64,000 bases of DNA from a virus: the IMG/VR virus record IMGVR_UViG_3300013102_000030, positions 1 through 64,000 of that record, one strand, 5' to 3'. Positions 19,721 to 44,763 of this stretch are shown in pieces (position 1 is the stretch's first letter; each line of letters opens with the position of its first letter). Made by a program: the position numbers and the translations under genes. The notes beneath the pieces were generated by a model, which was given only the letters and a program-made list of their open reading frames with translations, had not been told where the DNA came from and searched no databases.

Positions 19721-19923
19721 AATTCGAATTCAGAGTCTTCCAGAACAACCAATCAGTACCAGTTCACACCGAAGAGTCGGATGTGGAGAACCCAGCACCG
19801 AAATGCCATGAGCTTTCCGTCAAGTTCCACCTTGGCCCTCCCACCTATTCGGTGGATTACGGCTGGCGGTACACTGACGGCTATGTATCTGCTTCACCCC
19901 TAGAACAAGAAAAGGACAAATGA
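19717..19923 (+). CDS. hypothetical protein (paralog of 19266..19502)
   Basis: FE..VFQ....VHTE...HLG...YTDG. Confidence 0.75.
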   Translation: MKFEFRVFQNNQSVPVHTEESDVENPAPKCHELSVKFHLGPPTYSVDYGWRYTDGYVSASPLEQEKDK

Positions 19924-27143: not shown

Positions 27144-27359
27144 ATGACAGGAAAGATCCCCCGCTTTGGGGCAGAACTCTTTGGCGGACATGTCGGAACC
27201 GGCACTGCCGTTCAGACCGGCTGTGTCTACTGTCTGCATGCAGGTCTGAAGGCCCCCGCGCTGGATCATGTGACCTACATGTGGGCCGGAACCAGCTATT
27301 GCAGTGACCACCTTCAGGAACACATCTTCAAGACCGCAGGAGCAGCAAATGGCACGTAA
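27144..27359 (+). CDS. small Zn-finger-like protein
   Basis: CVYC...GTSYC..H. Confidence 0.7.
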   Translation: MTGKIPRFGAELFGGHVGTGTAVQTGCVYCLHAGLKAPALDHVTYMWAGTSYCSDHLQEHIFKTAGAANGT

Positions 27360-27651
27360 CCAAGCAGTCACCGGCATCAGCGATTCACTGGCTGTCTACC
27401 GGCTTACAAAGCTGGTCATGGAAGACAAGATCACGGAAGATCTGAGGGACTGGATCTATGACAAGTTCCCTCACGGTTCCAAGGTCCGATACCTCATCAA
27501 TTGCCAATGGTGCGTCTCCGTCTGGGCAGGACTGGCGGTCTTCGGTCTCCGTGCAGTCAACCCCAAGGCAGCAGATCTCCTCTCCGGAGCGCTTGCAGCG
27601 TCTGCCGTTACAGGAATCCTGTACGCAAAGGGAGTTGACCAGCCAAACTAG
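27349..27651 (+). CDS. DUF1360-type membrane protein
   Basis: A.YRLT.LV.ED.IT..LR; L..C.WC.SVW. Confidence 0.75.
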   Translation: MARNQAVTGISDSLAVYRLTKLVMEDKITEDLRDWIYDKFPHGSKVRYLINCQWCVSVWAGLAVFGLRAVNPKAADLLSGALAASAVTGILYAKGVDQPN

Positions 27652-27713: not shown

Positions 27714-29324
27714 ATGTCCATTTTTGATAAAAGAAACTCTTCTCGGGCTTCAGAAGATCTTATTGCGCCACAGCGCTACAATGCTCCCCGATCACTTACG
27801 GCTTCCGCCGCACGTATCGATCTGAAGAACAAGAAAGAGATCGACGCGATCAACAAGCGTCGTCAAACAGACAAGTGGCAGCAAGAGGCGTGGCAGTACT
27901 TTGACCTAATCGGTGAAATTAAGTACTCCGCGAACCTTGTTGCCAATGTCATGTCCAGAGTCAACCTCTACTCCGGATACGTGAACGATTCTTCCACTGT
28001 ACCATCAGACGTTGATGATGTCGAGAGCCTGCCGGAAGGTTTCGCACAGGATGCCAAAGACATCCTCTACCTGCTAGAATCAGGTAACGGCGGAACCTCC
28101 GGCTTGCTTCGTGGTGCAGCCCTGAACCTCTTCCTCGTGGGAGAGTGCTACCTTGTTCACGAACCAGCACGCTTCTCAAAGCACGAGCCTGCTAAGTACC
28201 AGATCCGTTCCATCTCTGAGATCGTCTCCACACAGGGACGTAATGCTCAGGTTGCCATCAAGCCACGCCGCGACTCAAAGCCAGCAGACATGCTTCCGCT
28301 GCCTTCCAACGGCTACATCTCCCGTATCTGGCGCAACCACCCTGAGTACTCTGAAGAGGCTGACTCCTCGCTCAAGGGTGTCCTTGACCTGTGTGATGAA
28401 CTGCTGCTTGTCTCCCGTACCGCGAGCGCTACAGCCAAGTCCCGCCTCAACGGTGGTCTTCTGTTCGTACCGGACGGTCTGTCCAACGTAACCCAGTCTG
28501 AGGGTGGCGAAGAGCTTGACGGCGAAATCGCTCCCATGACCGATGATGTCTCCGACTCCTTTGAAGAAGAGCTTATCGATGCCATGACAACTCCTATCGC
28601 TGATATCTCTTCTGCGTCTGCTGTTGTTCCTCTCGTGGTCCGTGGTCCTGAAGATCTTGGTGACAAGATCAAGCTGATCAAGTTTGAGCGTTCGTTCGAC
28701 CCGCAGCTTGCAGCACGTGCAGACCGCCTCATTGAGCGTATCCTTGCTGGTATCGACATCCCCAAGGATATCGCGGCAGGTATGTCCAATGTCAAGTACT
28801 CAAACGCTATCATCATCGAAGAGCAGCTTTACAAGGCCCACATCGAGCCGCTGATCCTCCTGATTGTGGACTGCCTCACCATCGGCTTCCTCCGTCCCGC
28901 TCTGCGTGCACAGGGATACGATGAGAAGTTTGTGAACCGTGCAGTGGTATGGTATGATCCTTCTGCCATCACTGCGAAGCCTTCCAAGGCTGAATCCGCT
29001 GTCACCCTGTACGGCCTCAAGGCTATCTCTCAGGAAGCTCTGCGTCAGGCACACGGATTCACTGAGGGCGACAAGCCTTCCGATCTTGAGCGCGTACAAC
29101 GTATCGCTGAAGACCGTGGCAACCTAACGGATGCAATGTCCGAAACCCTGCTAAACACCATGATCCCTGAAGACCTGAAGAATCAGGCAAGGGAAGATGC
29201 ACTGGCAGCTTCTGATCCTACCAGCGCCAACGCCCTGCAAAACGCCCTAGGTGGTGACCCAGCGGCAACCGGTGCTCCGGCAGACGGATCTGCTCCGGCA
29301 GAACCAACACCAAGTAATGAGTAA
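27714..29324 (+). CDS. portal protein
   Basis: WQ.EAW..FD.IGE; L.LVGECYL; RIW..HP....ADS; SRL.GG.LFVP; position before head genes. Confidence 0.85.
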   Translation: MSIFDKRNSSRASEDLIAPQRYNAPRSLTASAARIDLKNKKEIDAINKRRQTDKWQQEAWQYFDLIGEIKYSANLVANVMSRVNLYSGYVNDSSTVPSDVDDVESLPEGFAQDAKDILYLLESGNGGTSGLLRGAALNLFLVGECYLVHEPARFSKHEPAKYQIRSISEIVSTQGRNAQVAIKPRRDSKPADMLPLPSNGYISRIWRNHPEYSEEADSSLKGVLDLCDELLLVSRTASATAKSRLNGGLLFVPDGLSNVTQSEGGEELDGEIAPMTDDVSDSFEEELIDAMTTPIADISSASAVVPLVVRGPEDLGDKIKLIKFERSFDPQLAARADRLIERILAGIDIPKDIAAGMSNVKYSNAIIIEEQLYKAHIEPLILLIVDCLTIGFLRPALRAQGYDEKFVNRAVVWYDPSAITAKPSKAESAVTLYGLKAISQEALRQAHGFTEGDKPSDLERVQRIAEDRGNLTDAMSETLLNTMIPEDLKNQAREDALAASDPTSANALQNALGGDPAATGAPADGSAPAEPTPSNE

Positions 29325-29354: not shown

Positions 29355-32300
29355 ATGGCATGGAATATCAGCACGGCAAAACGCCGAGCGCTCGTCAAGC
29401 TTCAGCTACGAGATAAGAACGGTCGATGGATCGAAATGGGCGGTGGAGTCAAGTGGTACTCCTCCCGCCTAAAGAAAGTCGTATCTGGTACCGTTGTAGG
29501 TACACAGGGTGAGAACGCCCTTGTCCGACTCCCTAAGGAGAACCCAACACACGAACCAGCACTTGTCTCGGTGCCAGCACGCAGCATTGCTGTAGTTGAT
29601 GCCAAGACGCGTATTTCCATTCCGGGTAAGAACGCCCCTGCGGACGCTACCCCTGAGTTCGAAAAGCCTGAAGCAGTTGGCAAGCTGTCCAAGCCTGCCA
29701 ACGGATTTGTCAAGCCCAACGACCGTCCCGAGGATTGGAAGATCTCTCAGACGGACGATGGCCGTACCTACATCTCCCGTCCTGACGGTGCAGATCTGTA
29801 CTTCCCTGCCCGTAGCCTTGACATCGGTGATGAGATCATTGCTCCGGAAGGCGCTGAAGCATCCAAGCCGTTCTCCATCGGTAAGTCGTGGGGCCGCAAG
29901 AAGGCTGAAGCGGTCAGCACCACTGGCCCGAAGATGGGTACCGTCATCGACATCAACGGTGACCGTTACGCTGTCGTGCAGCTTGCAGACGGTGTTGTCG
30001 TTGACGACCCCAAGCGTCCCGGAGAGAAGACCAACAAGGTTACCGTTGGTCTGTCCAACTCTGTCATCAAGGCAACCGATGGTCTGAAGCAGGCTCTTGG
30101 TGGTGTCTTTGACGACGAAGGCTTCAACGAAAACGACGGCGGCGACGATCAGGAGGTTGACTCATCCGAGGAGGCCAACTCTGATCACGCTGGACGTGAA
30201 GTCCCTGAAGAGGATACCAACCCTGAGGACGATCCTGCTGCTGACGTAGAGGTCGATATCGCTGAGGCTACCAAGGCTGCTGAGCCGGGAACCGACAACG
30301 AAGAAGACGCTCCGATTCGTGAAGAGGAAGATCCTGAAGCCAAGGCTGCTGCTGAGGCCGATCTTGCACGCCGTGTTGCCGAGCATGAAGCAAAGCGCAA
30401 GGAACTGGGAGACCAGTACGACGAAAACGGTCTGACAGCAGACGAAGCCAAGATGGTTTCTGCCTATGACCGCCTTGCTGCCGGTGCCTCCGACCCTGAC
30501 CGTGCCGCAAACTACTTTGACAAGGCCGAAGCTCTCCGTGAAACGGGCAAGAAGCGTCTCGGGGAGTCCAACGACAAGTCCGAGAAGCCTGCTGACAAGC
30601 CCAAGGAGGCCCCTCAGACGGCTCCGGAGCCTGAACAGGAGCGCCAGTCCGACTCTAACGATTTGGAGGCCCCTAAGGAGAAGTCAGAGGCTGAGAAGCG
30701 TTATGACAAGATCACCGATGAGATTCGTTCCATCAAGTTCCCCGGAGAAGATCAGGAACCTGATCTGAATGATCCGCGTCTGAAGGCAGCAGAATCTGCT
30801 GATGACAACGCTGTGGACTCTGAGCGTGAAGGTATCAAGCCCAACACCGATGAGTGGTATGATATGTGGACTTCCACCTATCACTCTGCTCTTGAGGATA
30901 ACAAGGCTGAACAGGACGCGAAGTCTCGCCAGCAGGAACAGGATCAGGCTGTAGAGGAGGACGCGTACGCTGCGGCCTATCACAAGCCTGCCCTCCTGTC
31001 CATCACCACACGCGGAAACACCCGTGGAGAGATGGAGTACTTTGATGAGGTAGCTCGTGAGTCTGAGATCGATCAGGGTTACCACATGGAAGGTAACAAG
31101 TTCATTGTCACCGACCTTGACAAGGCTCAGAAGGCTATTGACAACATCATCGATGTCTGGAATGATAAGCAGGAGTCTGCCCAGAAGGGCGGATACTCTG
31201 CGGAAACCCCTGCAAAGGTCCGTTCGGTCCTTGCTGGCCTTGAAAAGCTGGATGCACAGGTTCGTGAAGCCAAGCGCAACAAGGAAAAGCACGCCTCCCG
31301 CTTTGACGGAAACTACGACATCACGGCTGACCGCCGTCTTGGTAAAGTCCGTCCGGGTGCTGAAGACTCTGACTACGCTGTAGATCGTACCTCCGATGAG
31401 CTTGTCAAGGCAATGCCCATCGGTGGAACCCTTACAGTACATGATCCAGACAACTTCTACTCAGGAATTCCTGTCGTCAAGATCGATGACAACACTTGGG
31501 CACGCCAAAAGGGTGTTGCAAGCCGCGAGTGGGACTTCTTTGACGACTTTGACATGTCCGATGATCTCCTCACAGGTGTCAAGCTTCCGGACAACCCGAA
31601 GAATGACTTCACTGAGAAGGATCTCAACGATGCACGCCGCGCCAAGGAACGCAAGGACCGTGACGACAAGGCGTTCAACGACAACTGGAACGCACATCAG
31701 GAGAAGCTGAAGGCTGAAAGGGATGCAGAGCAAGCTCCTGCCAAGGAAGAGCCAGCAAAGAAGGAACAGGCTCCTCTCACAGAGGGAGACCAGTTCGAAC
31801 TGCCGCTTCCGGGTGTCCAGAAGCAGGGCAAGCGCGAGGACAAGTCTGCTGCCCACAAGAAGACTCTTGACGGTCTGGAAGAGGGTGACCGTGTATCTTA
31901 CACGAACGCCCACGATGAGACTTCCACCTACCAGAAGCACGCTGATGGTACATGGGATCTGCTGGACCCTGAGGATGAGTGGGAGGATCAGTCTCCTCTT
32001 GAAGAGGCTCTGACCTCTGACGAAGTTGCTGCACGTACAAAGCGTGGAGACCTTGAGGTTGCTACTGTAGCAGACCGTGAGGAAGCTGACAGGGAAGAGA
32101 ACTACAAGCGCAGGCTCCGTGGCGACGACTACATGAAGTCCAACCCTGATCCTGTTCGTCGTAAGAACAATGGCGACGAAGGCAAGTCCCAGACTCAGCA
32201 GCAGGCGCAGGATGCCAACTCCGCTGACCAGCCATGGAGTGCTGATGAGATTCAGGGCACTATGCGTGACTGGTTTGACTTTGCTCAGGCTGTCAAGAAT

Positions 32301-35300
32301 GGCGACAACCGCGCCATTGAAACGATGGCTAACAACAAGCGTACCGGTGACGAAGAAACTGATATCATCGTCAACGACAAGGGCCAGCCGTTCGATCTCA
32401 CCCTGACTTACAACGATGACGGAGATCCCGTTGTTCGCTTGAGCAATTTCGATGACTCCAAGGACATCTACGGAGACTTTGAGATTGACAACTCTGTCAT
32501 GCCCAAGCAGCTTGCTACACTCATCCACGAGTCGATCAACGCTGATGATCCCCATGCAGCAGTTGCCGAGCGCAACGGAAGCAACGATCCTGTTGATGAC
32601 CCTTCAGTTGGTCAGAGCTATGAGGTCAGCAGTCACATTGGTGAAGGTAAGAACTACCTTGCCAAGGCTATTGAAGATCACGGTGACTCTGGCATTGTTA
32701 TCAACGGCACCACAGCGGATGTCACTGACCTTGACAAGGCACAGGACTTCCTGCGTGACGCTGTTCTTGACATTCAGGGGAAGATCAGCGATCCTTCCGC
32801 CCGTAAGAACTCCAAGATCGAACTGAACAAGGCTCAGCGCAACCTCAACAAGATACTTGCTGATGTCAACGCCAAGCAGTTCCAGCGCGACGGAGTAACC
32901 CGTCCGCCAAAGTGGATGAGGGACAAGCAGGACTCAACTCCGGCCAAGTCTGAGGATGCCCCTGCTCCTGAAGCGGAGGCTCCCAAGGCTCCGGAAGCTG
33001 CCAAGACCAACGTACCACTGGCTGATCTTGAGAAGCAGGCCAAGGCTGACGGAGACACTGTTCTCTATCACGGTGGTCTGCCTGACGGTACGACTCTCGA
33101 TGACATTGATCTGAACCGCAATGGAGAGCAGCAGAACAAGCGTGGACGCTCATTCGGTGGATTCTATCTCACCGATGAGTCTTCCAAGAGTTGGTCCGAC
33201 GACTACGCCATGAAGCGTAACGGTGTCATGCACGGTTTTGTCATCGACAAGAACGCCCGTATTGACGACCGTGGAAAAGCACAGATTGACCGCCTCTCCG
33301 CAGAAGACCGCGCTGAAGCTGCCAAGACTGCCGATGTCATCAAGGGTAAGGACCTTCTGGGACGCACCCAGTATGTCCTGCTCAACAAGGATGTCATCAA
33401 GGGTGTTGGTGAGACCAACATGAAGGACGACAAGTCCTCTGAGGACTCTGCTCCTGAGGCTAATGCTCCGGAAGCTCCTTCAGCACCTGAAGCTGATGTT
33501 ACGCCTGAGGAGTCCGCTCCTGAGGCTGACGCTCCTGCTCCAGTTGACATTGTCGATCACCTGAACCAGAATGCTGTACTGGGAGATGACGCTGAGCGTC
33601 GTGCTGCTGGCCTGTATCTCGGTGGTGCTCGCTACAACTCTGTCCTACGTGACGCTGCTGAGAACGGTAAAGAGGTTCACCCTCAATTCCAAGATCAGAT
33701 CGATACCCTCACGGGATTCATCGAGAAGCAGCCGGAGTTCGGTCAGGAGACCAAGCTCTACCGTGGAATGAGCCAGAAGTTCCTTCCGGATGCAGAGAAC
33801 CGTGTTGGCGACGTTATCACTGAGCCTGCGTTCCTGTCAACCTCTCTCAAGAGGGATCAGGCTGAACTGTTCTCCGGTGTCGGTGGTGGTGTCCTCATGG
33901 AGATCACTGCACGTCCACAGGACAAGGGCCTTTCGGTCAACATTGCTCAGATGCATGATCAGTCTGACATTCCGGAAGAATACCGTGCTCCTAACGATGT
34001 AACCGCCCGTGAGGCTGAAATCCTCATGAAGCCGGGAACATCCATGCGTATCACGGGTGTTGACGAAGTCAACGGAACTAAGGTTGTCAGGGCTGAGATC
34101 GTAGACGCACCTTCCGACAAGGTAGATGCTGAGATCATCCCTGAAGAAGCTGAGCTTCCTGAGGCTGAAGTCGATACTCCTGCTGTTGATGCTCCTGAAG
34201 ACTCCATCAACTCCCGTGGCCTCACCGATGCTGAGGAAGAAGAGTGGAATCAGGCTGAGATCGATGCTGACGTTGAAGCCCGTGCAGGAGATCCTGACGG
34301 TGTCCAGATGTACAAGGATAAGGCTGATGCCATCCTTCAGCGTGGACAGGACCGTCTCAACGGTGTAGACTCCACTGAGGACTCTTCCGCTCCGGAAGAA
34401 CCAGCAGTTTACACTGAGGGTGGACCCGGACGCGTTCCTTCTCTCAAGGAGACCATCAAGGCGATCCGTGAATCCGGTGTCGAATCCGTTCACATTCCGC
34501 TCAGTGATGCTCCGAAGAAGGACTGGACTCCGGATGAGCTTGAGGCTAAGTTCGACAGGGACGAGAAGAACGGTCTGGGGAACCTCCAGTTCGACGCTCT
34601 TCCTGATGAGTACAAGCGCTACAAGGACTCATCTGCTCCGGCAGATCCGATCAACCTTCCTGAAGAGGCAGCACCAGAAGCATCCGCTCCTGAGACTGCT
34701 CCTGAAGGACCGGCTCCAACTCCGGAACAGCAGGCCAAGCTTGACGAGTACGACCGTCAAATGGACGCTGCTGTAGAGGCTGACGATGACGCAGCGTACG
34801 ACAAGGCATCTGATGCTAAGTACGATCTCATTGACGCAATCCGTAATGGTTCGGCATCCAACGAAAACTCTGATAGTGTTTCAGACATGGAAACCGAATC
34901 TGAACCTTGGGTAAACCCGCTGGATGCACTGGGCATCGAACGACGCACACCTGAAGCGATTGAGGGAGAGAAGTATCCTCCGACTCAGCAGCAGCAGGAC
35001 GTGATTGATGCTGTTCTGGCAGGTCTTGACACGAAGGTTCAGGCTATGGCCGGTACCGGTAAGACTTCCACGCTTGTTGCTCTGTCCCGCCGCCTCACAA
35101 AGGAAGGCAAGAGCGCGATCTACATTGCGTTCAACAAGACAGTTCAGGAAGAAGCTGAAGAGCGCATGAAGGGCCTGAAGGTGGAAGCCAAGACCGGTCA
35201 CGGTACGGCTCACACGTGGGCACGTACCAACATGCCTCACCTGACGACCCGTCTTGCTGGCAAAGATCCGATGTACCCGATCAAGTTCGACAAGAAGACC

Positions 35301-38105
35301 AAGCAGGCAACTGACTGGGCTGACAAGAAGCCGGTTTCCTCTTCACGAGAGATCGCTAACATTCTCGGTGTTGAGAACAACCAGATTCACGAGGACGGTA
35401 CTGGTATTCCGCTCTCCAAGTCCAGTGTTGTTTTGGCTGTCAAGAAGACTGTCGGTTCCTTCCAGCTTAGTGATAAGGATGAGATCCTTCCGGAGCACGT
35501 TCCGGACTCATTTGAAATCGATGAGGCAGACAAGCCGAAGATTGTTGAGTTCGCAAACGCGTACTGGGATGACCTTTCCCGCGAGGATGGTGTGTTCCGC
35601 ATGGAGCACGACACCTACCGTAAGCACTGGGCGCTTTCACGTCCTGACCTCACGGATGGTACCGGTGGCAACAAGGCTGGCGCATCCGTGCTCTACATTG
35701 ACGAGGCTCAGGATACCCCTCCTGTCCTTGCCAAGGTAGTTGCAGACCAGAAGATGCAGAAGGTCATTGTCGGTGACCAGAATCAGGCCATCTACGCGTT
35801 CGCTGAGAACATCGACTACCTCTCTGAGGCAGACGGTGACGTTGAGCTTCCGCTTGACAAGTCATGGCGATTCGGTCCTCAGGTTGCTGACATTGGTAAC
35901 CGCTTCCTCCAGATGCTGGAATCTGACAGCCGTGTTGTCGGTGGTGGCCCTGAGTCCAGCATCGTCTACGGCATGGAGAACGCTGACGCTGTTCTTGTCC
36001 GCACCAACGCTGGTATGATTCAGGTCATCCTTGAAGAGACTGCTCGTGGCCGCAAGGTTGCTGCTCCTCCGGGAACTCGTGCAGATCTGATCCGCATGGC
36101 TGACACGGTCGAGAACCTGCGTGATGGCTGGGCCGGAGAGAATCCTCACGATGATCTCCTTGGGTTCAAGGACTGGAACGAAGTCATGGCAGCGAACGAA
36201 AACGGAGACCGTAGTGTTTCCAAGATCGTGAGCATGTTCGATGAGGGAAGTCCAACCAAGCGTGGAATGATCAAGGACTACCCTGCGTTCCTTGCTCAGC
36301 AGATGTCCAATGTCCGAAAGGCCATTGACAGCCTTGTCATGGAAGTTCCGGAATACCAGAACATCAAGCTTGTCAAGGAAGGTAACCGTACCTACCTTGA
36401 GGGTGCAGACCACCTGACCGGTAACAAGAAGCAGTTCGCGTCATACGACTTCAGCGCAGCCGTTGGTAAGATGAAGTACCCATACGCGGCCAAGCCGAGC
36501 ATGAACTTCATGGAGAAGAAGAAAGCCTACCACGAGGCAGGCGGACTCGGAACCGAAGGCTGGCGATTTGACTCTAGGTCAAAGCGCTACTACACTGATA
36601 GCCCAGAAGTAGCTGCTGGCATCGAGAAGTACTCGGGACAGGGAGACGTTATCGTTTCCACTGCCCACAAGTCCAAGGGTCTTGAATGGGACCGCGTCCG
36701 AATCAGTGATGACTTCCGTGCTCCTTACGAGGACAAGAACGGAGCCATGGTTTGGCCGGAGGATGACGAGTACAAGCTTGCCTACGTAGCCGTTACGCGT
36801 GCTGCCAAGGAACTTGATCCGGGTATTCTGGACTACGTTTTCGCTCACACACAGGAAAACGGTGGAGATCCCAAGAAGAAGCGTTCGATGGAAGATTCCA
36901 CTCCTGCTCCTGAGCAGGTTGAGGAAGAGAACCTTCCGAACAACGTTCCTGAAGAGGTTGCTGCTGAGGAAACAGACGTTCCTGAGGTTGAGGCTCCTGC
37001 CGAGATCCAAGAGAACCCTGAAGCCGATGTAGCTATTCCGGAAACGGAGCCGATGGGCCTCCCAGCCACAGACTACACGGAAGAGGAGTTTGCAAAGCTC
37101 CCTGTTGGAACTCGTATTCCAAGGGGACGCGGAGGCGAGCACCGCAAGGTTGGACCGAACGAATGGGAAAGCTACAACGAAGACGGTACCAAGCTCTCCG
37201 GAGGAACAAATACCGACTGGGTTATTCAGGCCAACGAAGAACTTCAGAAGCCTGCTCCAGTTGAGATTGATGCTCCAGAGATTCCGGAACAGGACGAACC
37301 TGTCATCACTCCGGATCTGGTTGACGCTCCTGAGCCTGTCTCAGAGCCTGATCCTGTACCTGTAGCTCCGGCTCCTGCTCCAACGCCTCCACCGGCTCCT
37401 GAGTTTGACGACGAAGGTCTGACTCCTCAGGAACGCCGCAGGGCTGATGAGCTTGAGCGCTGGATCGCTGAGGTCTACAAGGGCAACGCCCAAGGCAACG
37501 TGACGGCCATGGAGAACGAATTGTTCGACATGCTGGAGCGTGGCGAGAAGCGTATGAATCCGGCTCCTGAGCCTCCTACAGCGGCTCCACCGGCTAGGGA
37601 GACCACGACAACGCCTAAGGGACGCGCACCACGAGGTACGTACACCGATCAGCCTCTGATGGACTCCAGCGGTAAGCAGATCCAGATGGGTGACATGATT
37701 GGACACCCAAGGCTGGGACCGGTAGCAGTGACTGGTTTTGTTCCGCACTCCGGACGTAATACCTTCATTGATCCGGTAACAGGCAAGGAAGCGTCAGTCA
37801 AGGCGGCTAACGTCAAGATCGTCAATGACGTTCCGGACGAAGATATCACCGATATTGTTGGACAGCCCGGAGAGCGCTTCCAAGACCCGGCAACGGGTAA
37901 GAAAGCGTTCTACAACGGAGATGGACAGCCTATCGTGACCGGCCAGCGTGTCGTTGATCCTCGTACAGGACGTACAGGTGTTGTTGTCAGCGTCTATCCG
38001 GGCGCAGACGGCCTAGCCTCTGTCCCGGTTCAATGGGACGACGCTCCTAAGCCTGCCAAGCCAACCCGTGTCAAGGGTATCCTCTTGAAGCTGGCTGGTG
38101 TATAA
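29355..38105 (+). CDS. giant polyvalent head-associated protein: ART-like domain, VIP2-like ADP-ribosyltransferase, UvrD/Rep-like SF1 helicase
   Basis: LYHG..GFYLT; LYRG-FLSTS-REAE; AGTGKT, DEAQD, GDQNQAIY, SWRFG, STAHKSKGLEW, YVAVTRA. Confidence 0.85.
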   Translation: MAWNISTAKRRALVKLQLRDKNGRWIEMGGGVKWYSSRLKKVVSGTVVGTQGENALVRLPKENPTHEPALVSVPARSIAVVDAKTRISIPGKNAPADATPEFEKPEAVGKLSKPANGFVKPNDRPEDWKISQTDDGRTYISRPDGADLYFPARSLDIGDEIIAPEGAEASKPFSIGKSWGRKKAEAVSTTGPKMGTVIDINGDRYAVVQLADGVVVDDPKRPGEKTNKVTVGLSNSVIKATDGLKQALGGVFDDEGFNENDGGDDQEVDSSEEANSDHAGREVPEEDTNPEDDPAADVEVDIAEATKAAEPGTDNEEDAPIREEEDPEAKAAAEADLARRVAEHEAKRKELGDQYDENGLTADEAKMVSAYDRLAAGASDPDRAANYFDKAEALRETGKKRLGESNDKSEKPADKPKEAPQTAPEPEQERQSDSNDLEAPKEKSEAEKRYDKITDEIRSIKFPGEDQEPDLNDPRLKAAESADDNAVDSEREGIKPNTDEWYDMWTSTYHSALEDNKAEQDAKSRQQEQDQAVEEDAYAAAYHKPALLSITTRGNTRGEMEYFDEVARESEIDQGYHMEGNKFIVTDLDKAQKAIDNIIDVWNDKQESAQKGGYSAETPAKVRSVLAGLEKLDAQVREAKRNKEKHASRFDGNYDITADRRLGKVRPGAEDSDYAVDRTSDELVKAMPIGGTLTVHDPDNFYSGIPVVKIDDNTWARQKGVASREWDFFDDFDMSDDLLTGVKLPDNPKNDFTEKDLNDARRAKERKDRDDKAFNDNWNAHQEKLKAERDAEQAPAKEEPAKKEQAPLTEGDQFELPLPGVQKQGKREDKSAAHKKTLDGLEEGDRVSYTNAHDETSTYQKHADGTWDLLDPEDEWEDQSPLEEALTSDEVAARTKRGDLEVATVADREEADREENYKRRLRGDDYMKSNPDPVRRKNNGDEGKSQTQQQAQDANSADQPWSADEIQGTMRDWFDFAQAVKNGDNRAIETMANNKRTGDEETDIIVNDKGQPFDLTLTYNDDGDPVVRLSNFDDSKDIYGDFEIDNSVMPKQLATLIHESINADDPHAAVAERNGSNDPVDDPSVGQSYEVSSHIGEGKNYLAKAIEDHGDSGIVINGTTADVTDLDKAQDFLRDAVLDIQGKISDPSARKNSKIELNKAQRNLNKILADVNAKQFQRDGVTRPPKWMRDKQDSTPAKSEDAPAPEAEAPKAPEAAKTNVPLADLEKQAKADGDTVLYHGGLPDGTTLDDIDLNRNGEQQNKRGRSFGGFYLTDESSKSWSDDYAMKRNGVMHGFVIDKNARIDDRGKAQIDRLSAEDRAEAAKTADVIKGKDLLGRTQYVLLNKDVIKGVGETNMKDDKSSEDSAPEANAPEAPSAPEADVTPEESAPEADAPAPVDIVDHLNQNAVLGDDAERRAAGLYLGGARYNSVLRDAAENGKEVHPQFQDQIDTLTGFIEKQPEFGQETKLYRGMSQKFLPDAENRVGDVITEPAFLSTSLKRDQAELFSGVGGGVLMEITARPQDKGLSVNIAQMHDQSDIPEEYRAPNDVTAREAEILMKPGTSMRITGVDEVNGTKVVRAEIVDAPSDKVDAEIIPEEAELPEAEVDTPAVDAPEDSINSRGLTDAEEEEWNQAEIDADVEARAGDPDGVQMYKDKADAILQRGQDRLNGVDSTEDSSAPEEPAVYTEGGPGRVPSLKETIKAIRESGVESVHIPLSDAPKKDWTPDELEAKFDRDEKNGLGNLQFDALPDEYKRYKDSSAPADPINLPEEAAPEASAPETAPEGPAPTPEQQAKLDEYDRQMDAAVEADDDAAYDKASDAKYDLIDAIRNGSASNENSDSVSDMETESEPWVNPLDALGIERRTPEAIEGEKYPPTQQQQDVIDAVLAGLDTKVQAMAGTGKTSTLVALSRRLTKEGKSAIYIAFNKTVQEEAEERMKGLKVEAKTGHGTAHTWARTNMPHLTTRLAGKDPMYPIKFDKKTKQATDWADKKPVSSSREIANILGVENNQIHEDGTGIPLSKSSVVLAVKKTVGSFQLSDKDEILPEHVPDSFEIDEADKPKIVEFANAYWDDLSREDGVFRMEHDTYRKHWALSRPDLTDGTGGNKAGASVLYIDEAQDTPPVLAKVVADQKMQKVIVGDQNQAIYAFAENIDYLSEADGDVELPLDKSWRFGPQVADIGNRFLQMLESDSRVVGGGPESSIVYGMENADAVLVRTNAGMIQVILEETARGRKVAAPPGTRADLIRMADTVENLRDGWAGENPHDDLLGFKDWNEVMAANENGDRSVSKIVSMFDEGSPTKRGMIKDYPAFLAQQMSNVRKAIDSLVMEVPEYQNIKLVKEGNRTYLEGADHLTGNKKQFASYDFSAAVGKMKYPYAAKPSMNFMEKKKAYHEAGGLGTEGWRFDSRSKRYYTDSPEVAAGIEKYSGQGDVIVSTAHKSKGLEWDRVRISDDFRAPYEDKNGAMVWPEDDEYKLAYVAVTRAAKELDPGILDYVFAHTQENGGDPKKKRSMEDSTPAPEQVEEENLPNNVPEEVAAEETDVPEVEAPAEIQENPEADVAIPETEPMGLPATDYTEEEFAKLPVGTRIPRGRGGEHRKVGPNEWESYNEDGTKLSGGTNTDWVIQANEELQKPAPVEIDAPEIPEQDEPVITPDLVDAPEPVSEPDPVPVAPAPAPTPPPAPEFDDEGLTPQERRRADELERWIAEVYKGNAQGNVTAMENELFDMLERGEKRMNPAPEPPTAAPPARETTTTPKGRAPRGTYTDQPLMDSSGKQIQMGDMIGHPRLGPVAVTGFVPHSGRNTFIDPVTGKEASVKAANVKIVNDVPDEDITDIVGQPGERFQDPATGKKAFYNGDGQPIVTGQRVVDPRTGRTGVVVSVYPGADGLASVPVQWDDAPKPAKPTRVKGILLKLAGV

Positions 38106-38530: not shown

Positions 38531-41032
38531 ATGACCTATCCTTGGAAGGCGAACACTTTGGCAAACGACTACCACTGGAGAAGCACCAAAGCCAAGAAGC
38601 AACTCAGAGACCGATTTGGACGCTGGATCTCCCTTGGAGCCAAAGTCCGTTACCGTGGAGACGGTGCAGAGCAGTCAGGTACTGTTACCAGTGTTGTAGA
38701 TGGTAAAGCGTACATCGACCAGAAGAACCGTGACGGATCTGTCACGCAGAAGATTCTTCCTGCAAGCGCCATCCGTGTTCTTGCTTCTAAGGCTACGCTT
38801 CCCCCTGACGGCAAGCGCATCAAGGCCGACAAGTTCTCTAAGGCTCTCAATTCTGATGACTTCAAGTCCATCATGGAAGAGCACGGAGAAGCTGTAATCG
38901 AGCGCAAGGACGGCTATTCTCTTGCCGCGTCCTACGAGTCCAACGAATTCGAAGACGAAGCACAGGGCACGGACAATCAGGTCAAAGACGGCTCAGAGCC
39001 AACCCAAGAGGAAGAGCGCTCACGTAAGCCTTCCAGCCCTGTTGTCTACCAGCTTTTCGCTCCCGCAGGCCGCAGCCTTGGTCTCTACGGTGAGGACGCT
39101 AAGGATGACTTTGACCAGATGGCCGATGAGGAGATCTTTGGTGACGCTAAGCGTGCCGATGCTCCTGTTCCGGGAACTGGTCCTGCTCCGGGTGCCGGAG
39201 GTCAGGAAGCTGAGACCGCTCCTGTCGTGACCGCATCGGGTGAGCAGAAGCCTTACCGTGTTCCTGAGGCTGTCAAGGCTGAGATCCAGAGCACACTAAA
39301 CTCCCACGACTGGGCCTTTGCCGTCGATGAGCTTCAGGTTGCAACCCGTCTGGCAAATGACGATACTGTATCGTTGGAAGACGTAAAGTGGGTTCACCAG
39401 TTCTTTGCTGACCGCTCTATCGATGAGCGTATCCGTGGTGGATTCAAGGGCCGCAAGTGGGCTTCAAAGATCGTAGAAGAGCCTTCCGCAGAGTTCTCCA
39501 TCCGCGAGGATGCAGATCTGGGACACCCTAAGTACACCTTTGATGACGATGTCATGGCATACTTTGCTGTCGGCAGGGATTCAGGATCTACCCTAGTTCA
39601 CAGCATGCTTGCTGTAGACTATGAGACCGGAATCGTATACTCTTGGAGTGACGAAGGCTTTGCTGTTGTCGAAGGTCTTGACATTCAGGATGTCGATGAG
39701 CCACAGCTTATCCCCATCGATGAGATGACCGCAGATTCCTTTGCTAAGTGGATCGACTGCAAGACTGGTGAAGACTTTGACATTCTGGACACAGATCCGG
39801 AAGAGCGCAACCTGTTCACGCTGGCTGATTCTGAGATAGACTATGAAGAACTTGACCGTACTTTCAGCATCATTGCTGCCGGTCAGGTTGGTGACGGTGA
39901 ATATACACCTGTTGAGCGTTCTCAGAACGCCAAGCAGCAGCGTCGTGGAGCCGGTGGAAAGTTTGGTGAGACTCCGGACCAGCCTGAAGCTCCAGCACAG
40001 GAAGCCGCTGTCAAGAAGGCACGCCTTCCAGTCGCACTTCCGCTGGTTCCGAATCCTGCTGCACGTATCGCGGAGTGGCTAGCCACTGCTGCTGAAGCAC
40101 CTGTCGTAGCGGCTGCTGAGCCTGTAGCGCCCGTAGAAGAGCCGACAGCAGACAGCCCTAACCCAGAGTACACTGAGGAAGATCAGGCCGTTGAGGACGC
40201 TGCTACAGGTCCAACAGATGAGGCTCTGTACTTCGCTATCGTTGACGAGGTTGACAAGTCAGCCGTCATGGATGCTATCGCCATCGTCAAGGTTCAGGGA
40301 GCACCTTCCGCGTACATCCGTTCTCAGATGACATGGCAGGCCAGCCCTGACACTCTCACGATCCTTCAGGGAGCTACACCGCCTCCTGTGGTTGAGCTTG
40401 ACGTACCCGAACCTGTCAAGACCGTTCTGTCACAGATTGACGCTCACGATCAGGGCAAGGATACCACTCCAGCACCTACTGCTGAAGAGGCTCCACAGGC
40501 GGGTGAGGTCCCAATTGCGGCTTCCGGATACTCTCTGGCTGATGGCTCATATGCTATTATTGATACACTATCACTAAGAGATGCTGTTGTAGCCGCTGGT
40601 GCCGCTCCCGACATCCTTGTCAAGGCCCACATCCGTAAGCGTGCCCGTGCTCTGAACCGTATGGACCTAGTTCCTGCCGACTGGAGGCAGTTCACTCTTG
40701 CCGAAATTGGAGAGATCTCCGCTGCTGAGACTGTCTACGGTGAGTTTGGTGAGATCATTGTCGCATCCGGTGTTCCCGGAATTGCCGACACTCCATCTGA
40801 CTTCAAGAACGTTGCCAAGCTCAAGGCTTACTGGAAGCACGGCAAGGGAGCGCTCAAGATCCGCTGGGGAACTCCGGGAGACCTGACACGCGCCCACAGG
40901 CACCTGTCTAAGTACGTCGGACCACAGAGGGCATGGGGACTCGCTCAGCGCCTGCACCAAGAACTTTTTGGAGTGAGCAACATTACTCACGACCGCGCAA
41001 CAGGGCAGTACGTCCCGAGAAGAAAGAAATAA
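38531..41032 (+). CDS. multidomain head-associated (minor capsid/morphogenesis) protein
   Basis: QLRDRFGRW N-terminus; HIRKRARAL..P.DW and YW..G.GA.KIRWGTPGD modules typical of actinophage head loci. Confidence 0.7.
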   Translation: MTYPWKANTLANDYHWRSTKAKKQLRDRFGRWISLGAKVRYRGDGAEQSGTVTSVVDGKAYIDQKNRDGSVTQKILPASAIRVLASKATLPPDGKRIKADKFSKALNSDDFKSIMEEHGEAVIERKDGYSLAASYESNEFEDEAQGTDNQVKDGSEPTQEEERSRKPSSPVVYQLFAPAGRSLGLYGEDAKDDFDQMADEEIFGDAKRADAPVPGTGPAPGAGGQEAETAPVVTASGEQKPYRVPEAVKAEIQSTLNSHDWAFAVDELQVATRLANDDTVSLEDVKWVHQFFADRSIDERIRGGFKGRKWASKIVEEPSAEFSIREDADLGHPKYTFDDDVMAYFAVGRDSGSTLVHSMLAVDYETGIVYSWSDEGFAVVEGLDIQDVDEPQLIPIDEMTADSFAKWIDCKTGEDFDILDTDPEERNLFTLADSEIDYEELDRTFSIIAAGQVGDGEYTPVERSQNAKQQRRGAGGKFGETPDQPEAPAQEAAVKKARLPVALPLVPNPAARIAEWLATAAEAPVVAAAEPVAPVEEPTADSPNPEYTEEDQAVEDAATGPTDEALYFAIVDEVDKSAVMDAIAIVKVQGAPSAYIRSQMTWQASPDTLTILQGATPPPVVELDVPEPVKTVLSQIDAHDQGKDTTPAPTAEEAPQAGEVPIAASGYSLADGSYAIIDTLSLRDAVVAAGAAPDILVKAHIRKRARALNRMDLVPADWRQFTLAEIGEISAAETVYGEFGEIIVASGVPGIADTPSDFKNVAKLKAYWKHGKGALKIRWGTPGDLTRAHRHLSKYVGPQRAWGLAQRLHQELFGVSNITHDRATGQYVPRRKK

Positions 41033-41035
41033 GCC

Positions 41036-42565
41036 GTGAAGATTATGCCTAAGCTTGATGAAGATCTCATCAAGTCCCTAGATTATTCGGAAGCCATGGT
41101 GGCATCAGCAGCAGCGTCTGCACGCCTCCTAGCGGAAGAAGAGGGAACCGAGTTCGGTCCTCTCAATGTTTCCGCTGTTGAGTCATCTGGCTCTCGCTTC
41201 ATTATCCCTCTCGCTGTGCCTGAAGAGCTTGCCTCAGGTGATGAACGTTCCTTCAAGAAGAACTCTATCACAACCCGTGAGCTTCCGCTACCCCTGATGT
41301 GGCAGATCAAGACCGGAAACGGTCACGATGGCTCTGTAGTTGTTGGACGCATTGATTCGGTCGAGCGTCTTGACAACGGACTGGGAAATGTGCGTGGTGT
41401 CTTTGATGTCGGTCCCTTTGGCCGTGAAGCTGAGCGCATGGTTCGTGGAGGATTCCTCAGGGGAGTCTCCGTTGACCTTGACAAGTTTGAAGCTGAGGTA
41501 GAAGAGCAAGTCTTTGATACCAAAGAAGAGGCTGAAAAGGCCGCAAAGAAGAACTCCATCAAGAATGAAAAGATCGTAGTCGAATCTGCACGACTGATGG
41601 GTATCACTATCGTACCAAAACCAGCATTTCAGGAGTGCTTTATCATGATTGAAGAAGAGCCATCTCTGGATTTCGAAGAGGCACCCCTGCCTGAAGGAAT
41701 CTACGAGGAGACACCGGAAGACTTTGAGTACCAGTTGGCTGCTCTAGCCGCTTCCGCAGCACCTATCGTACCACCTAAGGCTTGGTTCAAAGATCCCGGC
41801 CTGACACAGGCTACACCACTCACCATCACAGATGAGGGCAAGGTATTCGGACACATTGCATCGTGGACGACTTCCCACATCGGTATGGGCCGTGGTGTCA
41901 AGCCTCCTCGCTCAGCATCCAAGTACGCATACTTCCGCACAGGAGAGCTTCGCACGGATGAAGGTGACATTCAGGTTGGACAGCTAACTCTAGCCGGTGG
42001 ACACGCTTCCCTGCAAGCTTCCGCTGAAGAAGCAGTCAAGCACTACGATGACACAGCATCTGCCGTTGCAGACGTTATCGCTGGTGAAGACGCGTTTGGT
42101 ATCTGGGTAGCTGGAGCGCTCCGTCCCGATGTTACACCATCTCAGATTCGTGCGTTCCGTGCATCATCCCCATCAGGTGACTGGAGGCCCATCAATGGCC
42201 GTCTGGAGCTTGTTGCTGTATGTCAGGTAAACGTACCCGGATTCCCGATTGCACGCGCTATCACAGCCTCAGGAGGCGTTCCCGGAGCACTTGTTGCTGC
42301 CGGTGCAGCGTATCTTGCTGAGCTTCGTGAGAGCACAAAGATTGAAGATCTGGAAAGCCGCATCAACAAGATTGAAAACTCAACACTTTCTGCCGACGTT
42401 GCTGCTGTTCGTAACCGTATGTCTGCTGTACTGGCTTCCCGTGATGCTGAACTAGCATCCAAGGCTGAAGCTGCACGTCAGCGTATGGCTGCATTTACAC
42501 AGAAGAAGGCCGAGACTGAGCTATCCGCCAAGGTGGAAGCTCTTCGCGCTCGCTTCAACCGATAA
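41036..42565 (+). CDS. capsid maturation (prohead) protease
   Basis: PLPLMWQ...GHDG.VVVGRI; RGVSVD; SGDWR; VNVPGFP. Confidence 0.85.
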   Translation: MKIMPKLDEDLIKSLDYSEAMVASAAASARLLAEEEGTEFGPLNVSAVESSGSRFIIPLAVPEELASGDERSFKKNSITTRELPLPLMWQIKTGNGHDGSVVVGRIDSVERLDNGLGNVRGVFDVGPFGREAERMVRGGFLRGVSVDLDKFEAEVEEQVFDTKEEAEKAAKKNSIKNEKIVVESARLMGITIVPKPAFQECFIMIEEEPSLDFEEAPLPEGIYEETPEDFEYQLAALAASAAPIVPPKAWFKDPGLTQATPLTITDEGKVFGHIASWTTSHIGMGRGVKPPRSASKYAYFRTGELRTDEGDIQVGQLTLAGGHASLQASAEEAVKHYDDTASAVADVIAGEDAFGIWVAGALRPDVTPSQIRAFRASSPSGDWRPINGRLELVAVCQVNVPGFPIARAITASGGVPGALVAAGAAYLAELRESTKIEDLESRINKIENSTLSADVAAVRNRMSAVLASRDAELASKAEAARQRMAAFTQKKAETELSAKVEALRARFNR

Positions 42566-42774: not shown

Positions 42775-44763
42775 GTGGATTCCATCCGTGAAAATCTTGA
42801 TCGTCTAGCCGATCTTAGCCCGGAAGAACTACAGGCTCTACAGGAATCGATTGCAACCGAGTTCGGTACGCTTTCTGATTCCGTTGGAGACAGCCCGACT
42901 CGTGACGCTGTTGACGCTATGAACGAACTCGCTGATGCCAACGACGTTGTCGCCGGAGAGCAGGCTCGTAGAGTAGCAGAGGCAGAAGAACTGGCAACTG
43001 CCGCAGAAGCTGCCATCTCCCGTTTCAAGGGGGATGAAGGTGCCACTGAAGAAGAGGCTCCCGTTGAGGAACTAGCCGCAGAGGGAACACCAGAAGAGGA
43101 AAAGAAGGAAACTCCTGAAGAGGAGAAGTCCGAACCAGCCCCTGCTGAAGGAACCCCTGAGGAAGAGACTGAAGAGTCTCCTGAAGAGGCAGACGCAGAA
43201 AAGAAGAAGAAGGATCTGGAGAAGTTCTCAGAGACTGAAATCGAAGAAGCGTCCGAACCTGTAGTTGAAGCTGTAGCTGAGTTCTCAGCATCAGAACCAG
43301 TTGAAGCACCAGTTGCTGAAGCTGTCGCTGAAGAGCCAGTCGAGTCTGAAGCCGCTATCGAAGAAGCTCCGGAGGCTGAAAGCGCCACCGAAACCCCCAT
43401 TGAAACAGTAGCAGAAGTTGCTACAGAAGATTCTACCACAGAAAGTTCGGAGGAACCTGTGACTGCCTCTAACACACCAAATGAGCTTGCATTCGAAGCT
43501 CCAGCAGAACTACGTCCTGCATCTCTCAAGGTCTCTGCTCCGGTAACCATTACCGCTGGTGCTGACCTTCAGGGTATCACAGCAGGTGCTGAACTGTCCA
43601 GCCTCAAGGAAGTTGCTCAGGCGCTTCTTTCCCGTAAGCACGGCATGGGCCGCACTTCCGGTGGCGACGGCGAACAGCACACTGTTGCTACCTTCTCCAC
43701 GTCCTTCCCTGACAACCGTATGCTCTTCAGCAATGACGTTGAGGGTAACCGCGCAAAGATCAACGCTGTTGTTTCTCCTGAAGCAATCGTTGCTGCCGGT
43801 GGTCTTACCGCTCCGGTTGAGACTTCTTGGGACATCTTTGAGCTTGGCGAGACCTCTGTCCGCCCCGTCAAGGACGCTCTTGCGGTCTTCGGTGCTGATC
43901 GTGGTGGCCTTCGCTTCATGACCCCACCGCTGCTCTCTGACCTTGAGGGCGCTGTCTCCGTATGGACCATGCAGGATGACATCGACGCTGCCTCCCCAGA
44001 CGGCCCGAACCCTGTCAAGCCATGCCTCCGTGTTGCAGCCGGTACTGAAGTTACCGTCTACACCGACGCTATTCCGCTCTGCCTTACCTTCGGTAACCTA
44101 GGCGCTCGCGCTTACCCTGAGCTTGTCCAGCGTCACACCGAGCTTGGAATGGTTCAGCACGCACGTTTCGCTGAGATCCGCCTGCTTACCCGCATTGGTG
44201 CTCTCTCCACCCCAGTTACCGCTGACGCTGAACTTGGCGCTGCTCGTGACATCTTCGTCCAGCTTGAGCAGGCTGCTACAGCTTACCGCTCACGCTACCG
44301 CCTTGATCCTAAGGTTCCGCTCCGCGTACTCTTCCCTGAGTGGTTCAAGAACGCGCTCCGCGCTGACCTGACCAAGCAGCTTCCGGGTGACGGACGCGAC
44401 GGTACCTTCAACCTGGGCGAAGCCGAGATCAACAAGTGGTTCGCTACTCGTAACATCAACGTTTCATGGTTCATCGATGGCGAAACAGGCCAGATCTTCG
44501 GTGAGCAGGCTCCGGGTGCACTTCTCGGATTCCCCAAGGAACTGATCTGGTACCTCTTCTCTGAGGGCACCTTCGTATTCCTTGAAGGCGGTGTGCTTGA
44601 CCTCGGACTCGTCCGTGACTCAACACTCAACGGCACCAACGATTACAAAATCTTCCTTGAGACTTTTGAAGGCGTTGCAAAGGTCGGTGTAGAGTCCCTA
44701 CGCGTTACCTCCAAGCTCGCAATCAAGGGTTCTAGCTCCGGCACCACAGCGGTCGCAGGCTAG
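42775..44763 (+). CDS. major capsid protein with N-terminal acidic scaffold domain
   Basis: Glu/Ala-rich N-terminal about 230 aa; AAGG..AP.E..WD; RGGLRF; KPC; GNL..RAYPEL; LDLG.VRDSTLN.TNDY..F.E.FEG. Confidence 0.9.
   Translation: MDSIRENLDRLADLSPEELQALQESIATEFGTLSDSVGDSPTRDAVDAMNELADANDVVAGEQARRVAEAEELATAAEAAISRFKGDEGATEEEAPVEELAAEGTPEEEKKETPEEEKSEPAPAEGTPEEETEESPEEADAEKKKKDLEKFSETEIEEASEPVVEAVAEFSASEPVEAPVAEAVAEEPVESEAAIEEAPEAESATETPIETVAEVATEDSTTESSEEPVTASNTPNELAFEAPAELRPASLKVSAPVTITAGADLQGITAGAELSSLKEVAQALLSRKHGMGRTSGGDGEQHTVATFSTSFPDNRMLFSNDVEGNRAKINAVVSPEAIVAAGGLTAPVETSWDIFELGETSVRPVKDALAVFGADRGGLRFMTPPLLSDLEGAVSVWTMQDDIDAASPDGPNPVKPCLRVAAGTEVTVYTDAIPLCLTFGNLGARAYPELVQRHTELGMVQHARFAEIRLLTRIGALSTPVTADAELGAARDIFVQLEQAATAYRSRYRLDPKVPLRVLFPEWFKNALRADLTKQLPGDGRDGTFNLGEAEINKWFATRNINVSWFIDGETGQIFGEQAPGALLGFPKELIWYLFSEGTFVFLEGGVLDLGLVRDSTLNGTNDYKIFLETFEGVAKVGVESLRVTSKLAIKGSSSGTTAVAG

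Follow-up and report, generated by a model that had tools for sequence, protein, structure and literature searches.

A gene in the head module of a 174-kb soil-actinobacterial phage encodes a giant protein of 2916 aa (320 kDa) that is probably a phage-type polyvalent protein, one that would be taken up into the prohead and delivered to the host along with the phage DNA. Polyvalent proteins are recognized by two or more disparate activities in one polypeptide, and the giant protein combines ADP-ribosyltransferases (ARTs) of two clades with an SF1 helicase. The phage portal/terminase head-morphogenesis context that accompanies such proteins was found here and at four related loci. A preliminary description of this DNA had assigned the protein to the polyvalent, head-cargo class. 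The two ARTs, the helicase, and the placement in the class held on sequence, fold, and gene order; no MuF domain was detected.

Gene locus and head-module context

The giant gene (29355..38105, + strand) was analyzed within a window of 64,000 nucleotides, corresponding to positions 1 to 64,000 of IMG/VR record IMGVR_UViG_3300013102_000030, and consists of 2916 codons without an internal stop. Its ATG lies 30 nt past the stop codon of the portal gene and is preceded by the sequence GGAG, 9 to 10 nt to the 5' side. The portal gene (27714..29324, + strand), directly upstream, was identified by its match to phrog_776 (E value of 1.4e-97), and its counterpart in Arthrobacter phage Atuin, gp70, is annotated as a portal. 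Two ORFs of 106 and 833 aa separate the giant gene from the head maturation protease gene (41036..42565, + strand), which matched phrog_18402 and related families and whose Atuin counterpart, gp75, is annotated as a capsid maturation protease. The major capsid protein gene (42775..44763, + strand; phrog_777, E value of 2.4e-80) follows. The location between portal and protease, as originally described, was therefore correct.

The gene order of portal, giant gene, small ORF, ORF of approximately 800 aa, protease, and capsid is the same in the window, in Atuin, and in three metagenomic relatives, and the adjacency of the giant gene to the portal gene is kept in relatives, including the isolated phage Atuin. 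In addition, the 833-aa head-module protein (38531..41032, + strand) has an N terminus resembling that of the giant protein (BLASTP E value of 9e-6). Searches with BLASTP and phmmer detected the leader-like sequence on this second head-module protein in three genomes, namely, the window, Atuin, and the genome L006.

Architecture of the giant protein

The protein is laid out like beads on a string: a basic leader comes first, and the enzyme cassettes behind it are kept apart by strongly acidic P/E/A/D linkers and by a repeat named GLT, which is present three times. The long acidic P/E/A linkers noted in the preliminary description were confirmed; P, E, A, and D together make up 50 to 71% of the linkers, and the whole protein has a pI of 4.6 and a net charge of -220. 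Self-BLAST of the giant protein found no long internal repeats, and its small beta domains showed no detectable kinship to one another. Searches of the protein with Pfam returned neither an MPTase nor an LPD domain.

The N-terminal leader module (29355..30089, + strand; aa 1 to 245) is basic (pI 9.6) and is predicted to form small SH3-like beta-barrels of the KOW/Tudor type. No other part of the family is conserved as strongly: many columns of the leader are invariant, and in the 54 giant relatives it always begins at residue 1. The AlphaFold (AF2) model of the leader (pLDDT of 75) is a string of small beta-barrels, with fold matches to KOW/Tudor domains (VIA Z scores of 7 to 8.8; Foldseek E values of >1e-3), a generic small beta-barrel fold from which a function is not readable. 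MuF had no Pfam match in the whole protein at an E value of ≤1 or in aa 1 to 245 at an E value of ≤10, a search that a very divergent MuF within the approximately 1000 matchless residues could escape. The preliminary description had missed that the N terminus carries a different conserved leader in the place of MuF.

The GLT repeat is approximately 55 aa long, lies at cassette borders, and occurs in 90 copies over 45 proteins. The copies in the giant protein, all on the + strand, are located at 30414..30575 (aa 354 to 407), 34203..34370 (aa 1617 to 1672), and 37401..37571 (aa 2683 to 2739). The repeat was not found in the remaining ORFs of the window, and this confinement to the giant ORF indicates that it is not a tag common to capsid, scaffold, or protease. 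PT-VENN, the sole match of the repeat, was rejected as its identity, with an E value of 0.13 that is below significance.

Two globular regions precede the enzymes, and neither had a match in Pfam, PHROG, or Atlas. The first (30792..31589, + strand; aa 480 to 745) is conserved in Atuin gp71 and contains a "VTDLDKAQ" unit that is duplicated at approximately aa 1096 to 1140 (internal duplication E value of 9e-5), and the second (32172..32879, + strand; aa 940 to 1175) was found in 12 relatives. The C-terminal module (37635..38102, + strand; aa 2761 to 2916) comprises two small beta-rich domains that appear SH3-like by sequence pattern and is conserved in 35 relatives. Scans against Pfam and PHROG returned nothing significant for the leader, the C-terminal module, or the GLT repeats.

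Family of giant proteins with interchangeable cargo

At least 54 giant proteins with the common N-terminal leader were identified. Their ends are fixed, and their enzyme cargo is swapped or reordered. The preliminary description had missed that neither the helicase nor the ARTs are obligatory and that this cargo is shuffled within the larger family. A wider search for the leader among longer proteins yielded six only, mostly truncated giants. Arthrobacter phage Atuin encodes a homologue, gp71, at the same locus, which shares the leader, both ARTs, the GLT repeats, and the helicase with the window protein at identities of 54 to 70%, depending on the block. The two proteins differ in that the first ART directly follows the leader in Atuin gp71 (at approximately aa 405 to 641), whereas it follows the two matchless regions in the window protein. 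Further homologues are encoded by phages Mimi, Racecar, and Talia1610 and, like Atuin gp71, are annotated as "DNA helicase" in databases; a literature search found no study of Atuin, Mimi, or Racecar. Some distant relatives contain SNF2 and methylase modules. One distant UvrD-bearing relative, located directly after a Phage_portal gene, carries an N-terminal HK97-type prohead protease domain together with ArdC-N and MPTase-PolyVal, which are hallmark polyvalent domains.

These features bear on whether the protein is head cargo or, instead, a multi-enzyme that stays in the cytoplasm late in infection, unpackaged although its gene belongs to the head operon, where it would modify proteins of host or phage and process DNA in replication or packaging. 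The latter reading, which we consider rather unlikely, draws on the fact that gene position by itself is no proof of packaging, on T4 ModA and ModB, which are ARTs that are not packaged (PMC5512222), and on the failure to find MuF or another known head-anchoring domain. However, portal adjacency is strict across distant relatives with different portal families, the prohead protease is fused to the protein in one lineage, the fixed leader is common to another head-module protein, and the combination of fixed ends with variable cargo is typical of delivered effectors.

ADP-ribosyltransferase domains

The first ART (ART1; 33015..33404, + strand; approximately aa 1217 to 1356) is a compact H-Y-[E/Q] ADP-ribosyltransferase domain with the fold of diphtheria toxin, exotoxin A, and PARP. 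Its AF2 model has a pLDDT of 94.5, and the top Foldseek matches are all exotoxin A, cholix, PARP, or tankyrase with a probability of 1.0; the fold matches of the model are ART catalytic domains only, diphtheria toxin among them. The key residues are H1239, Y1271, Y1284, and Q1339 (nt 33069 to 33371). Together with the fold, the His on strand 1, the Tyr on strand 2, and the acidic residue or Gln on strand 5 that characterize the H-Y-[EDQ] clade were all found. The ART-like domain proposed from the letters alone at approximately 33050 to 33420 is thus supported by AlphaFold and Foldseek, with H1239, Y1271, and Q1339 in place.

ART1 is a mobile domain with 156 representative homologues at an E value of ≤1e-3, and the H and Y motifs of the family profile align to those of diphtheria and chelona toxins. 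The His is present in 158 and the Tyr in all of 161 family sequences, and the third position is occupied by Glu in 109, Gln in 47, and Asp in 1. The window copy had no match in Pfam even at an E value of ≤10, and 17 of 40 small stand-alone homologues matched ART-PolyVal (PF18760; best E value of 1.7e-7), which places ART1 in ART-PolyVal only transitively. The preliminary description had missed that the catalytic position of ART1 is occupied by Gln, whereas Glu is the residue in most relatives; with Gln there, ART1 may have little or no catalytic activity. An alignment of ART1 to a chain of the pre-ejectosome of cyanophage A4 (Z score of 6.7) was not used as evidence, as the A4 paper describes no ART there.

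The second ART (ART2; 33537..34100, + strand) is a VIP2/Alt-type ADP-ribosyltransferase of the R-S-ExE kind. It matched the Pfam family ADPrib_exo_Tox (PF03496) at aa 1412 to 1576 with 34.9 bits, above the cut-off of 23.4, and its catalytic signature is intact (R1470, S1495-T-S, and E1553-A-E1555), in agreement with the R-STS-ExE VIP2-like domain previously placed at approximately 33600 to 34110. ART2 aligns to Vis toxin, Lmo0066, and Tre1, and it matched phrog_832, "RNA polymerase ADP-ribosylase," with an E value of 2.5e-6. The Arg and Ser are retained in 16 of 16 relatives and the catalytic Glu in 14 of 16. The two ARTs of the giant protein belong to different clades.

Helicase domain

A UvrD/FBH1-like SF1A helicase (34935..36839, + strand; aa 1861 to 2495) follows the ARTs. 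The Pfam models UvrD-helicase (PF00580) and UvrD_C (PF13361) both matched above their cut-offs, PHROG 1967, "DNA helicase," matched with an E value of 7e-78, and the helicase region alone had human FBH1 as its sole match among PDB sequences (E value of 1.9e-28). Motifs Q, I, Ia, II (DEAQD), III, IV, V, and VI were all found intact, which bears out the full SF1 motif set reported earlier at approximately 34970 to 36810, and all 62 complete copies share the same motif residues. No match to a methylase or SNF2 domain was found in the giant protein.

Wherever the cassettes are present, all three enzymes have kept their catalytic residues, which argues for selection on activity and against a mainly structural role, in which the protein would be an internal component of the head, such as an inner core, a DNA spool, or an ejection-pressure element of a large capsid, with the enzymes as dispensable passengers. 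The constant parts (the leader, GLT repeats, acidic linkers, and C-terminal module) are non-enzymatic, the helicase and ART2 are both missing from many relatives, the negative charge is extreme, and the genomes of the lineage reach 130 to 194 kb, all of which would suit a structural component; on balance we regard a mainly structural role as unlikely, and it is compatible with, not opposed to, delivery into the host. It is very improbable that the helicase serves the phage itself in replication/recombination or repair and became fused to ARTs by accident of gene order: it is the sole UvrD-family match in the 174-kb genome, where no DnaB_C match was found, and its homologues in Atuin, Mimi, and Racecar are annotated simply as "DNA helicase," but the cassette is missing from many family members at the same locus, two SF2 helicase genes are located elsewhere in the genome, and it is most similar to the helicase modules that other giant polyvalent proteins carry, some of them actinobacterial with SNF2 and methylase modules, at approximately 40% identity versus approximately 29% to stand-alone phage UvrD-type helicases.

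Proposed role of the giant protein

As a packaged polyvalent protein, the polypeptide would be made with the head proteins and loaded into the prohead, where the leader would dock the chain in the role that MuF plays elsewhere and the head protease may cut it, and it would be released into the host together with the DNA. After ejection, ART2 would, like T4 Alt, mono-ADP-ribosylate host proteins on arginine, and ART1 may act on a different target or by an altered chemistry because of the Gln in place of Glu. The helicase could load on the entering genome and strip host proteins from it or otherwise shield or pull in the DNA, as proposed for packaged helicases of the P1 DarB type. The steering of RNA polymerase to early cassette promoters, suggested in the preliminary description, is not supported and is a pure analogy with T4 Alt. 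Several points speak against the packaged reading. A chain with a net charge of -220 is not obviously favorable beside DNA, and a helicase of 70 kDa, once folded, could pass a tail channel only by unfolding or by release in some other way. The Gln of ART1, the approximately 1000 residues without an assignment, and the failure to detect MuF, MPTase, or LPD domains weigh on the same side.

A broader idea, possible but doubtful, is that the leader and GLT repeats form a hitherto undescribed scaffold for delivery and cassette exchange in large actinobacterial phages, analogous to the pre-toxin junction motifs of polymorphic toxins. Interchangeable enzymes would be loaded into the capsid through it, and one of them, an injected UvrD/FBH1-like motor, would work on the incoming genome as a novel type of anti-defense or DNA-entry device.

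The first minutes of infection are decided by injected phage proteins, and to our knowledge very few of these have been studied, namely, T4 Alt, the P1 Dar proteins, and the N4 virion RNA polymerase (vRNAP). In the family described here, exchangeable enzymes occur naturally on a single proposed delivery scaffold, and a harmless soil bacterium, Arthrobacter globiformis, is the host of at least four isolated relatives. Should packaging be confirmed, the way in which a 320-kDa chain reaches and leaves the capsid, the role of a packaged SF1 helicase on incoming DNA, and the targets of two different ART chemistries would become testable, and the database annotation "DNA helicase" for these genes would be corrected.

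Comparison with known systems

Polyvalent proteins and head-packaged ARTs have been described previously (PMC5512222, PMC9503650). The giant protein shares with the phage-type polyvalent proteins (Iyer et al., 2017; PMC5512222) a giant multidomain organization with unrelated enzymes, a location beside portal and other head genes, an ART of the H-Y-[EDQ] kind, tied to ART-PolyVal through its relatives, and variable architectures, as well as the prediction of packaging and injection. It differs from them in that MPTase, LPD, and MuF domains were not detected and the cargo is framed by a KOW/Tudor-like leader and GLT repeats. Moreover, the polyvalent survey reports UvrD-type SF1 helicases only for a small number of proteins from actinomycete plasmids, where the context is conjugative (PMC5512222), whereas the one reported here sits in a phage head-module protein.

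Among individual systems, T4 Alt is likewise an R-S-ExE ART made with late/head proteins; however, it is a single enzyme of approximately 75 kDa with a T4-type capsid-targeting mechanism, whereas ART2 is one among the cassettes in a chain of 320 kDa. The Dar proteins of phage P1 lie on the inner capsid wall and exit with the DNA (PMC12810830). Among them is the large protein DarB, which is packaged in the head and shields incoming DNA (PMC5512222). It resembles the giant protein in having a helicase module, but that module is an SF2 (SWI2/SNF2) helicase joined to an N6-adenine methylase; in the giant protein the helicase is of the SF1A (UvrD/FBH1-like) type, and no methylase was found. In MuF-fused ART toxins and proteins of the SPP1 gp7 type, an effector is carried on a head-anchoring N-terminal domain beside the portal, and in the giant protein MuF is replaced by the predicted string of beta-barrels. 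The giant protein is best read as a variant of the known polyvalent proteins, and the family with its KOW/Tudor-like leader in place of MuF, the GLT repeats, and the shuffled cargo extend the preliminary description.

Location and general features of the giant gene

The giant gene (29355..38105, + strand) lies in a virus record of 174,136 bp that was judged complete. Its reading frame is uninterrupted over 2916 codons and starts 30 nt past the stop codon of the gene preceding it, with GGAG located 9 to 10 nt 5' of the ATG. The portal gene (phrog_776, E = 1.4e-97) is directly upstream, and two ORFs (106 and 833 aa) are directly downstream, followed by genes for the head maturation protease (phrog_18402 and relatives) and the major capsid protein (phrog_777). 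The preliminary description of a 2916-aa ORF between portal and protease is thus upheld, with two additional genes intervening. The encoded protein (320 kDa) has a pI of 4.6 and a net charge of -220, and the long acidic linkers rich in P, E, and A described at the same time consist of 50 to 71% P+E+A+D.

ADP-ribosyltransferase and helicase domains

Two ADP-ribosyltransferase (ART) domains, ART1 with YHG and GFY motifs and the VIP2-like ART2 with an R-STS-ExE signature, and a full superfamily 1 (SF1) helicase motif set had been proposed, and each was recovered by the present searches. ART2 (aa 1412-1576) matched Pfam ADPrib_exo_Tox at 34.9 bits (cutoff, 23.4) and can be aligned with arginine-specific Vis toxin, Lmo0066, and Tre1, in which the catalytic positions correspond to R1470, S1495-T-S, and E1553-A-E1555 of ART2. 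It also matched the PHROG "RNA polymerase ADP-ribosylase" (E = 2.5e-6).

ART1 (aa 1217-1356) was examined separately because the window's own copy had no Pfam match. An exhaustive search retrieved 156 representative homologues, about one-third of which are stand-alone proteins of 120 to 230 aa and half of which lie inside proteins of >1000 aa. PF18760 (ART-PolyVal) was matched by 17 of 40 small homologues, and the YHG and GFY motifs of the family profile align with those of diphtheria and chelona toxin. The AlphaFold model (pLDDT 94.5) returned ART catalytic domains only, namely, those of exotoxin A, cholix, diphtheria toxin, PARP, and tankyrase (Foldseek probability 1.0, TM ~0.55; VIA Z 7.7 over 131/140 residues). 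Family members share an invariant His and Tyr; at the third catalytic position, 109 copies have Glu and 47 have Gln, and the window copy has Gln (Q1339). The homologue matches, toxin alignment, and predicted fold identify ART1 as a bona fide member of the ART fold, of the H-Y-[E/Q] type. In classical toxins, Gln at the third catalytic position lowers transferase activity, as in diphtheria toxin E148 and PARP1 E988 variants.

The ART1 model also aligned to residues 941-1604 of chain B of PDB 9k3a, the pre-ejectosome of cyanophage A4 (Z 6.7, 111 residues). The paper on this structure makes no mention of ADP-ribosylation, and the solved ejection-protein complex may hold an unremarked ART-like fold.

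The helicase (aa 1861-2495) scored above the cutoffs of both Pfam UvrD-helicase and UvrD_C and matched PHROG 1967 (E = 7e-78). When this region alone was searched against the sequences of solved structures, the sole match was human FBH1 (E = 1.9e-28). The SF1 motif set is complete and is identical in 62/62 complete copies of relatives.

Distribution and modular organization of the family

A length-matched search yielded 82 giant proteins (1843-4947 aa) possessing the UvrD module, the N-terminal leader, or both. Variable extras among them include ADPrib_exo_Tox, NUDIX, ArdC-N, MPTase-PolyVal, an HK97-type protease, SNF2, methylase, RNase T, and a kinase-like domain. In the module map, the ends stay constant and the cargo is shuffled: only 4 proteins combine ART1, ART2, and the helicase, many members have no helicase, and ART1 lies at aa ~405-641 in gp71, the homologue from Arthrobacter phage Atuin (194 kb), versus 1217-1356 here. 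Atuin gp71, which is annotated as "DNA helicase," carries the same ART2 and helicase, and homologues also occur in phages Mimi, Racecar, and Talia1610. Atuin and three metagenomic contigs retain the order HTH, DUF1360, portal, giant, small ORF, ~800-aa ORF, protease, and capsid; the small DUF1360 protein (27304-27651, E = 2e-12) is encoded just 5' of the portal gene in the window and in 3/3 related contigs examined.

P0016 (L006 4086-14759), a 3557-aa sibling, shares the leader, ART1, ADPrib_exo_Tox, and UvrD with the window protein and also has a weak PI3/PI4-kinase-like match. P0075 (L008 7001-17110), a distant UvrD-bearing relative of 3369 aa, directly follows a Phage_portal gene of a different portal family. 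Its N terminus is an HK97-type prohead protease domain (Peptidase_S78), after which come ArdC-N, MPTase-PolyVal, and UvrD modules. This portal adjacency and domain content link the lineage with the interior of the head and with the published polyvalent class. A second protein of >2600 aa is encoded two genes beyond P0075.

Leader and junction repeats

The leader (aa 1-245) is the only basic part of the giant protein (pI 9.6). No other part of the family is as well conserved, dozens of alignment columns being invariant, and 54 giant relatives carry it at residue 1 irrespective of cargo. It was modeled (pLDDT 75) as a chain of small beta-barrels, the first of which resembles KOW/Tudor domains (Z 7-8.8), a common fold that carries little functional information. 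Pfam detected no MuF domain in the giant protein. The N terminus (aa 17-100) of the 833-aa protein (38531-41032) resembles the leader (BLASTP E = 9e-6), and such an N terminus is found on the ~800-860-aa protein two genes downstream of the giant gene in the window, Atuin (gp74), and the L006 relative. Its C terminus matches phrog_6439, for which no function is annotated. The 833-aa protein may be another cargo or ejection protein that is loaded by means of the same signal.

A repeat of ~55 aa, here called GLT, occurs in three copies, at aa 354, 1617, and 2683 (30414-30575, 34203-34370, and 37401-37571). Across 90 copies in 45 relatives, the consensus is YNEnGLTp.E...G.xR, with G, L, T, E, G, and R conserved at 89-99%. 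The repeats lie at the borders of exchangeable cassettes, and the blocks conserved between the window protein and Atuin gp71 terminate just past them. GLT had no significant family match (the sole match was pre-toxin PT-VENN, E = 0.13), and neither it nor the leader is matched by a Pfam or PHROG model. Residues 246-1215 outside the first GLT (~1000 residues) likewise had no significant Pfam or PHROG match; a short "VTDLDKAQ" unit is duplicated in the N-terminal half (30972-31334 and 32577-32879, pairwise E = 9e-5).

Neighboring genes

A phosphoribosyltransferase-like gene (23435-24343) and a NAPRTase/NAMPT-family gene (24593-26032) are located just upstream of the head module and occupy the equivalent position in Atuin (gp62/63) and on the contig that encodes relative P0014. 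A phage with predicted injected NAD-consuming ARTs also has NAD salvage genes nearby. A 174-aa ORF (19920-20444) matches the Macro domain at the Pfam cutoff (E = 1.1e-4, 22.6 bits versus 22), which makes it a candidate ADP-ribose eraser encoded by this genome. A 300-aa ORF (16595-17497) with collagen triple-helix repeats and a Rib-like segment probably encodes a fibre or decoration protein.

Proposed role and comparison with known systems

The giant protein is fairly likely to be head cargo of the polyvalent type described by Iyer et al. 2017 (PMC5512222). On this reading it would be synthesized late, its leader would bring it into the prohead, the head protease might cleave it, and it would be released together with the DNA. 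In the host, ART2 may act on host-protein arginines as T4 Alt does, ART1 may have another target or altered chemistry, and, if the packaged DarB of P1 is a guide, the helicase may operate on the genome as it enters. Dar proteins of P1 have been observed at the inner wall of the capsid, exiting together with the DNA (PMC12810830). We infer every step beyond synthesis with the head proteins, and a late enzyme that is never packaged is a rather unlikely reading of the same gene. There is a slim chance that the chain is an acidic, mainly structural core with the enzymes as passengers. Within the family the helicase is optional cargo, and two SF2 helicases are encoded elsewhere in the genome; a replication helicase is therefore an unlikely reading. 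The earlier idea that RNAP is steered to early promoters, drawn from the Alt analogy, gained no support.

The polyvalent class itself is already known. However, the UvrD-type helicases reported by Iyer et al. 2017 are confined to a few actinomycete plasmid proteins, whereas here one is found in a giant phage protein, and a 2022 survey of viral NAD-ADPr systems makes no mention of an ART-SF1 helicase fusion. The NAD gene pair resembles the NARP1-type NAD reconstitution pair. In contrast to MuF fusions, which have a MuF leader, the giant protein has a KOW/Tudor-like one, and this leader and the GLT junction repeat distinguish it from the published description of polyvalent proteins.
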